From positions 367,858-431,857 of the forward strand of contig CAVQKO010000014.1 in assembly GCA_963713075.1 (NCBI GenBank): a DNA stretch of 64,000 nucleotides, written 5' to 3'. The notes beneath the pieces are model-generated. The model saw only the letters and a program-made list of their open reading frames with translations. It ran no database searches and had not been told where the DNA came from. This document shows positions 45,426 to 50,611 of the stretch, one piece after another (position 1 is the first letter of the stretch; every line of letters begins with the position of its first letter). Source of the stretch: an uncultured Chloroflexia bacterium. Lineage in GTDB: Bacteria > Chloroflexota > Limnocylindria > Limnocylindrales > CSP1-4. Made by a program: the position numbers and the translations under genes.

Positions 45426-46001
45426 GCCGGCGGCCGCGCTCGTGGGCCGTGGCGGCGGCAGCGGGCCTGGTAGGCCTCCACACCACCGACGTTCGCCTCG
45501 ACGAGCTCATCCGGGCCGACGAGCGGCTGCGCGACCCGGACATGGAACACCGCCTCCTCGCCGCACAGCGTGCAGATGGCGGTCAGCTTGTCGACGCGCT
45601 CCGCGAGCGCCATGAGCGAGGGCAGGGGCTCGAACGGCTGGCCGTCGAAGGTGACGTCCAGGCCTGCCACGATGACGACCCGCCCGCTTGCTGCCAGGCT
45701 GCTCGACCACGTGCGTCAGGCCCGGCCCGAAGAACTGGGCCTCGTCAATCGCGACCACGTCCGCTCCGGCGGGGACCGCCTCCTCGATCGCGCCGGCGTC
45801 GGCCACCGCGACTGAGGGGTAGTCGAGGCCGGCATGGGACGCGAGCCTGCCCGCGCCGCTCCGCCCCTCGTCGAGGGCGTGGCCGATGACCACGACGTGC
45901 CGCCCGGCTATCACCGCGCGGCGGACGCGGCGGAGCAGCTCCTCCGTCTTGCCCGCGAACATCGGGCCGCAGACCACCTCGACCCGTCCGACCCGCTCCA
46001 C
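45422..46001 (-). pseudogene. tdk: Second thymidine kinase, split by a +1 frameshift
   Basis: GPMFAGKTEEL and IDEAQFF in one frame; GLDVTFDGQPF, AICTLCG and YQARCRRH in another. Removing one base at 45697-45698 restores QLAASGRVVIVAG. May be a sequencing error. Confidence 0.8.
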
Positions 46002-46290
46002 GGCGACAGCATGGCACGTCGCGGTCGCGCACTGCGCGTCGCCTACGCCCCCGGAGCGTCGTAGACGCCGTACGCCCCGGATTCCCCGTCAGCGACGTGC
46101 CCGAGGCGTGCCTGGACCCGATCCTTCGCCTCCACCGGGCGCAGACGCGTCCCGCCGGCGCCTACCACGCTCCCGGGGCGTCGATGGTGATCTGGGCGTC
46201 CACGGCGTGCTGGTCCTGGTGGGATGTCGCTGGCGTTCGGGGCCAGCGCGCAGCTGCTGCCCTGGAACGGGGCGCCGCGCCTACCCCCGC

Positions 46291-47985
46291 CTACCCCCGC
46301 GCCTGGGCCTTGGCCCAGCTGTCCTTGAGGGTGACCGTCCGGTTGAACACCAGGGCGTCAGCGCGCGAGTCGGTGTCCGCGCAGAAGTAGCCCAGGCGCT
46401 CGAACTGGACCGTGTCGCCGGGCCTGGAGCCCGCCAGTGATGGCTCCACGAACCCGCGGACGATCGTCTCGGACGCTGGGTTGAGGTCGTCGAGCAGGTC
46501 GCGGCCAGCGGCACCCGGGTCGGGGCGCGTGAACAGGTAGTCGTAGAGGCGGACCTCGGCGGGGACCGCGTGCGCCGCGGAGACCCAGTGGAGCGTGGCC
46601 TTCGGGCGCCGGCCGTCGGGCGAGTCGCCGCCCCGCGTCGCCGGGTCGTAGGAGCAGCGGAGCTCCACGACCCGCCCTTCGGCGTCCTTCACCACCTCGT
46701 CGCACGTGATGAAGTAAGCATTCCGGAGCCGCACTTCGCGCCCCGGTGCCAGGCGGAAGAACTTGGGCGCTGGTTCCTCCATGAAGTCGTCGCGCTCGAT
46801 CCACAGCTCACGCGAGAACGCCACCGGCCGCTCGCCGGCCGCAGGGTCCTCCGGGTTGTTCACCACCTCCATCGTCTCGATCCGGTCGTCGGGGAAGTTG
46901 GTGATCACGACCTTGAGCGGGTCGAGCACGCCGAACCGGCGCGGCGCGGTCCGGTTGAGCACGTCGCGGACGCAGTGCTCGAGCAGCGCCATCTCGTGGG
47001 TGCTGTCGGCCTTGGCGACGCCCACCTCGGTCGCGAAGTCGCGGATCCCCTGGGCCGGGAAGCCCCGTCGCCGCAGGCCCGAGATCGTGGGCATGCGCGG
47101 GTCGTCCCAGCCGCGGACGCGCCCGTCCTGCACCAGGCGGAGCAGGAACCGCTTGGACAGCACCGTGTAGGTGAGCGACAGCCGCGCGAACTCGTACTGG
47201 TGCGGCACGTGCGGCACGGGCAGGTGCTCGATCAGCCAGTCGTACAGGGGCCGGTGGACGTCGAACTCGAGCGTGCAGATCGAGTGCGTGACGCCCTCGA
47301 TCGCGTCGCTCTGGCCGTGCGCGTAGTCGTAGGTCGGGTAAATGCACCACGCGTCGCCGGTCCGCGGGTGGCTCGCGTGCACGATCCGGTACAGGACCGG
47401 GTCACGCAGGTTGATGTTGGGCGAGGCCATGTCGATCTTCGCCCGCAGCACGCGCGCGCCGTTGGCGAACTCGCCTGCGCGCATCCGCGCGAACAGGTCG
47501 AGGTTCTCCTCGGCCGACCGGTCCCGGAAGGGCGAGTTCGTCCCGGGCTCGGTCAGCGTGCCGCGCGTCTCGCGGATCTCGTCGGCCGAGAGGTCGTCGA
47601 CGAACGCGTCGCCGTTGCGGATGAGGTGGAGCGCCCATTCATAGAGCGTCTCGAAGTAGTCCGAGGCGTGGAACAGGTTGTCGCCCCAGTCGAAGCCGAG
47701 CCAGCGCACGTCGGTCTGGATCGCGTCGAGGTACTCCTGCTCCTCCTTGACCGGGTTGGTGTCGTCGAAGCGCAGGTTGCAGTGCCCGCCGAACTCGGCG
47801 GCCACGCCGAAGTTGAGGCAGATCGACTTGGCGTGGCCGATGTGGAGGTAGCCGTTGGGCTCGGGCGGGAACCGTGTCACCGGCGCGCTCACGCGGCCGG
47901 CGGCGATGTCGGCGGCCACGATGTCGCGGATGAAGTCCCGGCGGTCGGGGGCGCCAGCGGCGGGCTCGGTCCTGGATACGCTCAT
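46291..47985 (-). CDS. glnS: Glutamine--tRNA ligase
   Basis: [44 protein letters not shown] and QFERLGYF. Confidence 0.96.
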
Positions 47986-48059
47986 GGCGGCGGCTCCTGC
48001 TACCGGTGGGGGAGGAGTCGCGGCTCACGCGAGCGGGCGCACCACACTCCCTTGGGAGT

Positions 48060-48133
48060 TGGCTGACGCACCGGGATTCGAACCTCGGCCCTCCCGGCTC
48101 AGCACCGGGCGCTCGTCCATGAGCCACGCATCA
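48060..48133 (-). tRNA. Non-canonical tRNA-Gln(CUG)-like cloverleaf
   Basis: UGAUGCG-UG-GCUC-AUGGAC-GAGC-G-CCCGG-UGCUGAG-CCGGG-AGGG-CCG(A)GG-UUCGAAU-CCCGG-UGCGUCA-G-CCA. It has U1-A72, G73, a CUG anticodon and encoded CCA, but G33 instead of U33 and a bulged T-stem. -10 TAGACT lies at 48148-48153. Confidence 0.7.
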
Positions 48134-48206
48134 GCGACCTGGCGCCCAGTCTAGCGCACCGATCGCGACAGACCAGTGCTTGGCATGAGGCCTTGCGTCG
48201 GTGTGG

Positions 48207-48232
48207 AGTATACGTATACTGATACTCATACT
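48207..48232. promoter_or_regulatory. Operator/promoter of the EXLDI operon
   Basis: Perfect palindrome AGTATACGTATACT (48207-48220) overlapping -10 TATACT; ATACT repeated three times at 6-bp period. Confidence 0.6.
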
Positions 48233-48257
48233 CTGTTTCCGATCAGGAGGCTAGGAT

Positions 48258-48791
48258 GTGCCCGTGCCGAACAAGACGATCTACGTGTCCGACGGAGACC
48301 TGCCGCTCTTCGCCCGTGCGCAGGAGCTCGCCGGCGGCAACCTCTCGTCAGCGATCGCGAAGGCGCTGCACCGCTGGGTGGACACCGCCGACGCGCTCGC
48401 CGGCGGCTTCGAGGAGATCACCGTCCGCGTCGGACTCGGCGCAGGCCGCAAGGTCCGCTTCGTCGGCGTGCTCGTGGGCGAGTGGACGGACACGCGGACC
48501 GGTGGTGGCGGCATGGCCGACGCCTATCACGTCTACCGGGGCCGGACCGGCAAGCTCGTGGTCCACGTGGAGCGGAGCCCCGAGTGGTGGGCCGTCGACG
48601 CGGAGGGCAAACCAGCGGGCTGGCGCGCCTGGGTCGGCGTGGGCGACGTGCGCTATGGCTCGCGGCCCAAGGAATCGACGCTCGAGGTGGTGGACACGCT
48701 CGAGCAGCTGCGCGACAAGGTCCCCCCTGAGCTGTTCGACATGGTCGAGCGGACGATGCGCCAGCCGACCGTGGAGGAGCTCGACATCTAG
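48258..48791 (+). CDS. EXLDI family protein (RHH-like N-terminus)
   Basis: PNKTIYVSD..LFARAQEL.GGNLSSAI, RKVRFVG and C-terminal VEELDI. Confidence 0.88.
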   Translation: MPVPNKTIYVSDGDLPLFARAQELAGGNLSSAIAKALHRWVDTADALAGGFEEITVRVGLGAGRKVRFVGVLVGEWTDTRTGGGGMADAYHVYRGRTGKLVVHVERSPEWWAVDAEGKPAGWRAWVGVGDVRYGSRPKESTLEVVDTLEQLRDKVPPELFDMVERTMRQPTVEELDI

Positions 48792-48845
48792 CCCGGCGGG
48801 CACGCCGCCCTCCGCTCACGCGGCTCGGGCTGCGGAGGCCGTCCG

Positions 48846-49805
48846 ATGACCGGGCCGGAGCGGGCCAGCGCGGTCTCGGCACGCGGGCTGCGCAAGGCCT
48901 ATGGACCGCACACGGTTCTCGACGGCATCGACCTCGAGGTCCCCGCCGGCACCGTGTTCGCGCTCCTCGGCCCCAACGGCGCAGGCAAGACGACCGCGGT
49001 CCACATCCTCACCACGCTGCTCCGCCCCGACGCCGGGGAGGTGCTCGTGGGCGGCGTGGACATCGCCCGGCGGCCCGACGAGGCGCGGCGGCTGATCGGG
49101 CTGACCGGGCAGGTGTCGGCGGTGGACCCGCAGTTCACGGGCATCGAGAACCTGCAGCTGATGGCCGACCTGCACCACCTCGAGCGCGGGGACGGGCACC
49201 GCCGGATCCGCGAGCTGCTCGACCGATTCGACCTGGGCGAGGCGGCGACCAAACCCGTGCAGACCTGGTCCGGCGGCATGCGACGGCGGCTGGACCTGGC
49301 GATGACCCTGGTCGGGCAGCCGCAGATCATCTTCCTCGACGAGCCGACGACCGGCCTCGACCCGAGGAGCCGCCGCGTCATGTGGGACACGGTCCGGGAG
49401 ATCGTCGGCGGCGGGGTCACGGTCTTCCTGACCACCCAGTACCTCGAGGAGGCCGACCGCCTGGCGAGCCGGATCGCGCTGCTCGACGGCGGTCGCATCG
49501 TGGCCCAGGGATCGCCGGCGGAGCTGAAGCGGCTGGTTCCCGGCGGCAGCGTGCGGCTGGAGTTCGGGTCCGAGGAGCAGCTCGAGCGCGCGGCGAGCGT
49601 GCTCGAGCGCGGCACGCGCGACGGGTCGGGGCTGGCCCTCGAGGTCCCCGGCGACGGCGGCATGCACGCGCTGCGCGGCCTGCTCGAGCGGCTCGAGGCG
49701 GCCTCGGTCGAGGTGGACGCGCTGTCGGTGCGCCCGGCCGACCTCGATGACGTCTTCCTGTCCATGACCGGCCGCCGCGACGGCCCCGAGGAGGCCCCCC
49801 GATGA
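48846..49805 (+). CDS. ABC transporter ATP-binding protein (DrrA-like)
   Basis: GPNGAGKTT, SGGMRRRLDLA, FLDEPTTGLDP and LTTQYLEEAD. Confidence 0.92.
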   Translation: MTGPERASAVSARGLRKAYGPHTVLDGIDLEVPAGTVFALLGPNGAGKTTAVHILTTLLRPDAGEVLVGGVDIARRPDEARRLIGLTGQVSAVDPQFTGIENLQLMADLHHLERGDGHRRIRELLDRFDLGEAATKPVQTWSGGMRRRLDLAMTLVGQPQIIFLDEPTTGLDPRSRRVMWDTVREIVGGGVTVFLTTQYLEEADRLASRIALLDGGRIVAQGSPAELKRLVPGGSVRLEFGSEEQLERAASVLERGTRDGSGLALEVPGDGGMHALRGLLERLEAASVEVDALSVRPADLDDVFLSMTGRRDGPEEAPR

Positions 49806-50611
49806 ACGCCACCACGCTCGCCGACACGTCCACCATGCTGCGGCGGAGCCTGCGCCGCATGCGACGCTATCCCTCGCTCACGCTGTTCATCGCCGGCATC
49901 CCGGTGGTCCTGCTGCTCCTGTTCGTGTACGTCTTCGGGGGCACGCTCGGCGCCGGGCTCGGCGGGGCGGCACCGCAGGACGCGGGGGGTGACCGGGCTG
50001 CGTACATCGCGTATGTCGTGCCGGCCATCCTGCTGATCGCCGTCTCCGGGGCAGGGCAGGGGACGGCCATCTCGGTCGCGATGGACATGACCCAGGGCAT
50101 CATCGCCCGGTTCCGGACGATGGCCATCGCGCGGTCGTCGGTGCTCGGCGGCCATGTCCTCGGCGCCGTGGTGCAGTCGATCCTGGCCACCGCCCTCGTC
50201 GTGGCCGTCGCGCTGCTGATCGGCTTCCGCCCCACCACCGGGCCGGGCGAGTGGCTGGCCGCACTGGGCCTGCTCGCGCTCTGCGCCGCTGCGATCAGCT
50301 GCCTGTCGGTGGCCCTCGGGCTGGCCGCCAACAGCGTCGAGACCGCGAGCAACTCGCCGATGTTCCTGACCCTGCTGCCGTTCCTGAGCTCGGGGTTCGT
50401 TCCCGCGGCGTCCATGCCCGGACCGGTCGGCTGGTTCGCCCAGGTGCAGCCGTTCACGCCGGTCATCGAGACCCTGCGCGGGCTGCTCCTCGGGACCCCC
50501 ATCGGGAGCAGCGGGCCGGTCGCCATCGCGTGGTGTGTGGCGGTGGCCGTTGCCGGCTTCGCCTGGGCGCTGCGACTCTACGAGCGCCTGCCGGAGCGGG
50601 CCGGGGCCTAG
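49802..50611 (+). CDS. ABC-2 permease (DrrB-like)
   Basis: Six TM helices; DMTQGIIARFRTM and FLSSGFVP..MP..FAQVQPFT; ATGA overlap. Confidence 0.9.
   Translation: MNATTLADTSTMLRRSLRRMRRYPSLTLFIAGIPVVLLLLFVYVFGGTLGAGLGGAAPQDAGGDRAAYIAYVVPAILLIAVSGAGQGTAISVAMDMTQGIIARFRTMAIARSSVLGGHVLGAVVQSILATALVVAVALLIGFRPTTGPGEWLAALGLLALCAAAISCLSVALGLAANSVETASNSPMFLTLLPFLSSGFVPAASMPGPVGWFAQVQPFTPVIETLRGLLLGTPIGSSGPVAIAWCVAVAVAGFAWALRLYERLPERAGA

Follow-up and report, generated by a model that had tools for sequence, protein, structure and literature searches.

A tRNA-Gln(CUG)-like cloverleaf at the head of the glnS transcript in a Limnocylindrales bacterium: a possible non-decoding descendant of a genuine tRNA gene

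In an uncultured bacterium of the Limnocylindrales (Chloroflexota), glnS, the gene for glutaminyl-tRNA synthetase (GlnRS), is preceded by a cloverleaf that resembles tRNA-Gln(CUG) and very probably no longer decodes. The locus lies on the minus strand of a 64,000-nt stretch of contig CAVQKO010000014.1 (positions 367,858 to 431,857; hereafter the window), from a genome of 17 contigs that is 95% complete. In related genomes a genuine tRNA, an intermediate and the altered form share the same slot and the same leader. We tentatively favour the reading that the window's element diverged, as a paralogue, from the organism's own tRNA-Gln(CUG) and is now a non-decoding copy that GlnRS and the tRNA-processing enzymes would recognise, with an effect in cis on glnS. 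A comparison of 36 loci carries the argument: it points to purifying selection on the variant tRNA as a complete L-shaped RNA, anticodon loop included, and to a reader other than the ribosome.

The sole tRNA that ARAGORN reports in the window is a tRNA-Gln(ctg) at 48133-48060 on the minus strand. The Rfam tRNA family (RF00005) matches 48063-48133 at 31.8 bits (E 6e-4), which is marginal against a gathering score of 29. No other Rfam match at E<=1 falls within 46000-50000, so that the scan of this interval returned neither a T-box, in keeping with an earlier note made from the letters alone (the original prediction), nor a family for the tRNA-Gln-leader-glnS unit. Both programs and the sequence itself agree with that note in placing a 74-nt cloverleaf with an encoded CCA on the glnS strand (48060-48133), with 74 nt between A76 (48060) and the glnS ATG (47985), and the coordinates that it gave were all correct. 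The GlnRS identity elements U1-A72, G2-C71, G73, the CUG anticodon and CCA are present as it had described, together with G10, and so are the irregular features, G33, a D loop of 6 nt and a T stem with a bulged A. The anticodon loop, UGCUGAG (48098-48104, minus strand), has G33 at 48103 and CUG at 48102-48100, followed by A37 and G38, and U32 can pair with G38. The open reading frame (ORF) downstream (46291-47985, minus strand, 564 aa) is, by all of its matches, a bona fide glnS: it has Pfam tRNA-synt_1c and both anticodon-binding domains, scores 727.7 bits with NCBIfam TIGR00440 against a cut-off of 425.8, and matches solved structures of bacterial GlnRS with E values of 1e-213 to 1e-221.

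Tract and gene appear to share a promoter. A -10-like hexamer, TAGACT (48148-48153, minus strand), stands 14 nt ahead of tRNA +1, and the intervening spacer and short 5' leader, which ends in GGUCGC (48134-48147, minus strand), would hold the presumed transcription start and the leader removed by RNase P. A strict sigma-70 consensus scan found no promoters in 47800-48400. Among the 36 related loci a TANNNT hexamer lies 11-15 nt ahead of tRNA +1 in 33 and in none between the CCA and the Shine-Dalgarno sequence (SD), which bears out the claim that the only promoter-like -10 is upstream of the cloverleaf; GGUCGC is kept ahead of tRNA +1 in most of them.

Judged by the tRNA genes of its own genome, the glnS-linked element is an extra, atypical copy of tRNA-Gln(CUG). 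A canonical 75-nt tRNA-Gln(CUG) gene, with a -10-like hexamer of its own and a terminator-like hairpin after it, is found 41 kb away on the same contig, so the element is not the sole copy; a tRNA-Gln(UUG) gene is on a different contig. A canonical copy is also present about 1 kb upstream in three variant loci (L006, L011 and L014) and was found in five of five further variant genomes tested. The linkage to glnS, on which the original prediction had staked its case, is conserved: all 16 variants and one more from metagenomes sit directly ahead of glnS, none of the copies found is unlinked, and apart from glnS the variant has no conserved neighbour able to use it. The same genome has GatB above cut-off and GatA as two adjacent matches (the Gat loci, C8:315274-316713 and C8:332034-333456), and no AsnRS above cut-off. 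GlnRS is also present. On these findings GatCAB probably serves asparagine, by way of Asn-tRNA, and GlnRS is probably the route to Gln-tRNA.

The comparison set consists of 36 distinct sequences, each with the tRNA, the 14 nt ahead of it and the 92 nt that follow its CCA, and all gathered with a pattern or regex that contains the 9-mer GUGUGGUGC. It divides into 19 genuine tRNA-Gln(CUG) loci in 9 genera, 16 variant loci and one intermediate (L013). The layout common to all 36 is CCA, ACUCC-loop-GGAGU, the invariant GUGUGGUGC, an anti-SD arm, an SD arm and a start codon 71-78 nt past the CCA; because this layout includes genuine tRNAs, the ancestral state is, on this comparison, a tRNA-Gln-leader-glnS transcription unit. 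The genuine leader tRNA is 75 nt long with the loop CUCUGGA and scores 65.9-71.4 bits with Rfam. The variant is 72-74 nt long with the loop YGCUGAG, and Rfam lists two of the 13 variant loci scanned (29.2 and 29.9 bits). The intermediate has a canonical body, the loop CGCUGGA with G33, an altered 3' acceptor strand and a score of 44.8 bits. In five of ten canonical-type genomes the leader tRNA carries the sole canonical CUG anticodon arm found, and it would therefore be released and used there. The remaining five have two copies, and in two of these (G065 and G088) a tRNA-Gln(CUG) stands on both sides of glnS. A tRNA-Gln just downstream of glnS was seen in six other loci (L035, L039, L042, L044, L046 and L104), where several of the metagenome-assembled genomes (MAGs), labelled Chloroflexia, Actinomycetes or Thermoleophilia, have it downstream only; by these occurrences the linkage of tRNA-Gln to glnS reaches beyond the leader described here. 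One further locus (L020, in G012) is cut by a contig end.

The unit has a restricted distribution. Of 36 other genomes in the window's genus, 26 gave a match to a 301-nt query that covered the tract from promoter to start codon. Among 137 further genomes sampled from the family, 20 contain the exact leader motif, and these represent 9 genera; none of 263 genomes from the remaining families of the class contains it. The closest named records by GlnRS similarity are MAGs labelled Chloroflexota or Candidatus Limnocylindrales.

We found that the variant is preserved as a folded molecule. Across the 16 variants 95.9% of the cloverleaf is paired, as against 35-44% in slid controls, and six pairs have changed on both sides, a number that none of 500 shuffles reaches. 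The compensatory changes fall in all four stems and include the anticodon-stem pairs 25-41 and 27-39. Mean pairwise identity is 0.848 for the variant, 0.766 for its leader and 0.538 for the four-fold sites of the adjacent glnS, and the variant is more conserved than those sites in 120 of 120 pairs. Among unpaired positions one of seven varies in the anticodon loop (position 32 only) and one of seven in the T loop, which is consistent with equally strong selection on both; nine of 13 vary among positions 8-9, the D loop, position 26 and the variable loop taken together (anticodon loop against these, Fisher one-sided 0.029). The acceptor end, G73, CCA and the T loop (TTCGAAT or TTCGACT) are invariant or nearly so, and a GG like the G18-G19 of the tRNA elbow is present in the D loop of 15 of the 16. 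Irregularities persist alongside this conservation. Position 7-66 is mismatched in five of 15 distinct variant sequences, and the T-stem bulge that the original prediction had feared might be a read error is real in some lineages (A in four, C in three, irregular in two) and absent in seven. G33 is no read error either, for it recurs in the 16 variant sequences and in one intermediate from other genomes.

The loop itself suggests what might read it. The excerpted text of PMC10424219 counts U33 among the best-conserved nucleotides of tRNAs. All 16 variants have G33, and positions 32-38 can pair in every one (C-G in ten, U-G in six); ViennaRNA folds the variant tRNAs, taken alone, mostly with a 6-bp anticodon stem and a 5-nt loop, and the U33 and open 7-nt loop of a decoding tRNA are absent. 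Decoding by the variant is unlikely because of G33 and the pairable 32-38, which makes the ribosome an unlikely reader. For GlnRS, the bacterial glutamine identity set is that of E. coli as given in Table 1 of the excerpted PMC9976931. Eight of its ten features are invariant in the 16 variants (G73, U1-A72, G2-C71, G10, positions 34-36 and A37); position 34 holds the C of the CUG isoacceptor, and U35 and G36 are kept. The two that are not kept are U38, position 38 being G in all variants, and G3-C70, which is A-U in 14 variants, G-U in one and G-C in one. Since both the shape and the loop appear to be under selection, some factor would have to read both the shape and the anticodon. RNase P recognition is not known to need the anticodon arm, so that selection on the anticodon loop makes recognition by RNase P alone an insufficient explanation. 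GlnRS and the tRNA-processing enzymes seem to be the best candidates as readers, and the strict linkage to glnS makes GlnRS the most economical one. In the GlnRS-tRNA-Gln crystal of Rould et al. (1991) the stem is reportedly lengthened by 32-38 and 33-37 pairs and the anticodon splayed. If so, the closed loop of the variant would already have the form that the tRNA takes on its synthetase; we take this as a lead and not as evidence.

These observations suggest a history and a mechanism. In the ancestral order a -10-like promoter and a short 5' leader would have been followed by the tRNA with its CCA, a hairpin abutting the CCA, a hairpin burying the SD and then glnS. In part of the window's genus the tRNA would have been duplicated, one copy remaining canonical with its own promoter and terminator. 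In the copy next to glnS, U33 would have become G33, G37-A38 would have become A37-G38, permitting the 32-38 pair, and A3-U70 would have replaced G3-C70; its D loop would have shortened, its variable loop would have come to 4 nt, its 7-66 pair would have loosened and its T stem would have become irregular. The product would be a non-decoding, tRNA-shaped 5' domain of the glnS transcript. Its acceptor end and CUG anticodon would be what GlnRS recognises, with feedback on glnS expression; tRNA-processing nucleases would also recognise it and separate it from the messenger, and the SD hairpin would keep basal glnS translation low. It is possible, if doubtful, that the gene for GlnRS is in this way controlled by a full-length decoy of the enzyme's own tRNA, in which G33, the closed 32-38 pair and A37 would make the variant useless to the ribosome and leave it a GlnRS ligand, and free GlnRS could bind its own messenger and set its translation or processing.

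Several observations weigh against the favoured reading of a GlnRS-directed element. Native tRNA-Gln in these genomes has G37-A38 and the variant departs from it at 37, 38 and 3-70, so the fit of the variant to its own GlnRS is assumed from E. coli rules that may not transfer. The variant evolves faster than the canonical tRNA (identity 0.848 as against 0.949, although the canonical set spans more genera), and this could be plain relaxation of constraint. In a quick GlnRS tree (FastTree) the variant loci do not form one clade, and its starred branches force at least three changes. One locus (L019, in G026) keeps the leader and glnS behind only the 3' half of a tRNA-Gln, from the anticodon loop onward and joined to unrelated sequence; an assembly artefact is possible there, and the locus cuts against a strict need for the tRNA. 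No feature of the leader is specific to the variant, whose end is 61 nt from the SD, and a two-state switch in that leader is possible but unsupported. The GlnRS tree, built to look for a single origin of the variant, was poorly resolved, with the intended outgroups falling inside, and we claim no order of events from it.

The leader between tRNA and glnS contains two hairpins. The hairpin adjoining the tRNA 3' end (P1; ACUCC/GGAGU with the loop CAAG; 48041-48063, minus strand, in the RNAalifold consensus) is formed from ACUCC at 48059-48055 and GGAGU at 48050-48046. The inverted repeat that the original prediction saw directly after the CCA does exist; its 6 bp with a 2-nt loop are infeasible, and in the window the hairpin has 5 bp and a 4-nt loop. 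The P1 arms are invariant in the 36 sequences (99.4% paired, with eight of nine pairs never varying), so that covariation cannot test P1, and the loop differs between species in length and sequence; the hairpin is a plausible one. RNAalifold extends it by pairing G73-CCA with an invariant UGGU, with one bulged G, an arrangement in which the precursor would have the 3' end of its tRNA hidden. The 9-nt GUGUGGUGC after P1 (in the region of 48041-48045) is invariant in all 36 sequences and 9 genera, in part a built-in result since the loci were collected through this 9-mer, and within it only UGGU has a proposed partner, G73-CCA. The second helix, P3, joins an anti-SD arm, GCGACUCCU (48013-48021, minus strand), to an arm (47990-47998, minus strand) that holds the SD, AGGAG (47998-47994). 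P3 is supported by comparison as an SD-burying helix: 83% of cells are paired, three pairs have changed on both sides, and cognate arms give -13.99 kcal/mol as against -12.83 for non-cognate arms, a value that two of 5000 permutations match or better, in a kind of test that relatedness inflates. The SD is predicted to be unpaired with a probability of 0.00 in the window; the mean for the 36 leaders is 0.10.

Three other leader structures were considered and set aside. A GGUCGC:GCGNCC three-way junction after P1 shows one-sided breaks in L124, L125 and L129, none of them compensated. A conserved upstream ORF from the GUGs after P1 is contradicted by indels that put different species in different frames. 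A helix of the linker after P1 with the start-codon region, seen in minimum free energy (MFE) folds, gives -9.46 kcal/mol for cognate and -9.28 for non-cognate pairs, with 712 of 2000 permutations as low. The 176-nt transcript as a whole is predicted to fold into a rod (MFE -88.3, z -2.89), which we also set aside as not specific to the variant, because the mean gain from pairing between tRNA and leader is similar with genuine tRNAs (-12.3 kcal/mol, as against -13.4 for variants).

The original prediction went further and joined these segments into a switch, in which GlnRS binding or processing would flip the RNA between P1 plus anti-SD:SD on one side and GGGAGU:ACUCCU (ACUCCU at 48018-48013) on the other. 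The four segments do stand in the right order, and in the 36 sequences 90% of cells are compatible with the alternative helix. Covariation separates the parts of the proposal: pairs of the cloverleaf and of anti-SD:SD have changed on both sides, and in GGGAGU:ACUCCU no pair has, all shuffles reaching the observed values. The energetic effect is also small, for an RNA that lacks the first segment and starts at segment 2 raises the mean predicted SD exposure from about 0.10-0.14 to only 0.22, and in the window from 0.00 to 0.11. With no covariation and so small an effect the mutually exclusive folds are left unsupported. Nor can the SD-sequestering leader be the special partner of a mimic, since the same four segments follow a genuine tRNA in 19 of the 36 loci and thus did not arise to serve the mimic. 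Competition of the thrS type, directly with the ribosome, is not evident where 61 nt and two hairpins separate A76 (48060) from the SD. We regard the switch as improbable. An explanation that dispenses with GlnRS altogether treats the element as a handle for processing or stability, in which RNase P and 3' nucleases cut it away and the glnS messenger begins at P1. The ancestral layout requires such processing, given the genomes in which the leader tRNA is the only CUG copy (five of ten of canonical type), the variants agree throughout in acceptor end, G73, CCA and T loop, and P1 would form the new 5' end of the messenger. Against this, the pairing of the anticodon stem is kept by compensatory changes at 25-41 and 27-39 and six of the seven loop bases are invariant where four-fold sites have an identity of 0.54, and we consider a handle without GlnRS unlikely.

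That the element is a working tRNA, released and charged by GlnRS to decode in a minor role or to donate glutamine outside translation, would account for its full cloverleaf, its encoded CCA, most of its GlnRS identity elements and the selection on its anticodon loop. This, too, seems to us distinctly unlikely in view of G33 and of a 32-38 pair, Watson-Crick or wobble, in all 16 variants, Rfam scores of 29-32 bits or no listing where canonical tRNAs score 66-71, the 7-66 mismatches (five of 15 distinct sequences) and T-stem bulges, a canonical CUG gene in every variant genome specifically checked, and the lack, among the copies found, of any unlinked from glnS or of another conserved neighbour to use it. 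At the other extreme, a neutral, decaying pseudogene riding between promoter and glnS would be expected to evolve faster than the canonical tRNA and to gather mismatches and bulges, as the variant does, and the leader that persists behind the broken tRNA of L019 fits the same picture; the identity of 0.848 against 0.538 in 120 of 120 pairs speaks against neutrality, as do compensatory changes in all four stems, and we give this explanation very little credence. A cis-acting, non-decoding tRNA copy read by GlnRS and the processing enzymes is the explanation that we prefer to these four.

Synthetase messengers that imitate tRNA are known. The thrS operator of E. coli and the yeast AspRS messenger bind their own synthetases through mimics of the anticodon loop, according to the excerpted PMC9976931. 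The glnS element resembles them in presenting the cognate anticodon in a tRNA-like loop of the synthetase's own 5' leader and in the expected logic of feedback by free enzyme, here a prediction. It differs in being a complete cloverleaf with CCA, from a duplicated real tRNA gene, and in replacing a genuine tRNA seated there in sister genera; unlike the thrS operator it does not adjoin the SD, from which it is 61 nt distant. Known synthetase operators mimic only parts of a tRNA and have an obscure origin, whereas the glnS element is a whole cloverleaf with a readable ancestry. In the thrU-tyrU-glyT-thrT-tufB unit of E. coli, tRNAs are co-transcribed with a translation gene and split off by tRNA processing, so that there, too, a tRNA stands at the 5' end of a messenger for a translation protein. 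In contrast to the tufB unit, the glnS unit encodes the very enzyme for which its tRNA is the cognate substrate, a conserved structured leader links the two, and the window's tRNA is non-canonical.

The t-elements of plant mitochondria are tRNA-like processing signals. The mascRNA of MALAT1 is reported to bind GlnRS and to raise the GlnRS level (PMC9976931 and PMC10424219, both in excerpt). With these RNAs the variant would share a non-decoding cloverleaf for tRNA-processing enzymes, which for the variant is a proposal, and it differs from them in being bacterial and cis-linked to glnS. In Bacillus cereus the pseudo-tRNA tRNA-Other has a non-translational role and affects gene expression (excerpt of PMC3399842); it is a bacterial tRNA-like gene outside translation, as we suppose the variant to be, and differs in being stand-alone, trans-acting and outside any synthetase leader. 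T-boxes likewise bring tRNA-related control to synthetase genes, sometimes by way of SD sequestration, but a T-box binds a tRNA and the glnS element is one. A 2009 paper lists a predicted glnS leader motif in Shewanella (excerpt of PMC2659441), and a full-text literature search for a tRNA-Gln-glnS unit or a tRNA-like glnS leader returned nothing that describes it. If GlnRS reads the variant, a tRNA gene would here have become a regulatory ligand in nature, and the case would offer a natural set of variants for sorting the tRNA features that matter to the synthetase from those that matter to the ribosome; were the decoy correct, the family would preserve the path from genuine tRNA through intermediate to operator. 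If the element is only a processing handle, it would be a bacterial counterpart of organellar tRNA-like processing signals and of mascRNA.

Environmental sequences add a few members. A metagenome scan with the leader motif gave 80 loci among at least 120 stretches, of which 11 have an upstream tRNA T-loop motif (10 canonical and one variant, L203); one further locus, L155, is a canonical tRNA-Gln with a deviating T loop. Of the 80, 68 failed the T-loop test, and the 14 of these that were inspected are chance matches without a tRNA. RNA sequencing runs, represented by short contigs only, matched at most 0.10 of the query words, and in four of them nearly all pieces fell on the part of glnS that encodes the catalytic core and came from many organisms. 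One 116-nt contig from an RNA run (X13; depth 4.6) spans 48009-48125 and so bridges the tRNA 3' end; its source is a relative, and DNA in the library is possible.

Some features of the window's own sequence may be recorded beside these. The loop bases G33-A37, GCUGA (48103-48099), are complementary to U70-C74, UCAGC (48066-48062), of the same RNA; the canonical tRNA has only four such complementary bases (CUGG with CCAG), and positions 37 and 70 have changed together in most variants, with L034 and L013 as exceptions. This complementarity may be a by-product of the identity elements. The D-arm GCUCAUGG (48124-48117) is a perfect complement of CCAUGAGC at the start codon (47987-47980), in the window and its closest relative (L002) only. 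Upstream of the tRNA promoter an AT-rich patch of GTAT repeats (48206-48232) contains a perfect 14-nt palindrome, AGTATACGTATACT, at 48207-48220. The patch lies between that promoter and a divergent 197-aa ORF (48256-48849, plus strand; no family match), which is followed by a DrrA-like ABC ATPase (48846-49805), and the palindrome looks like an operator for this divergent unit.

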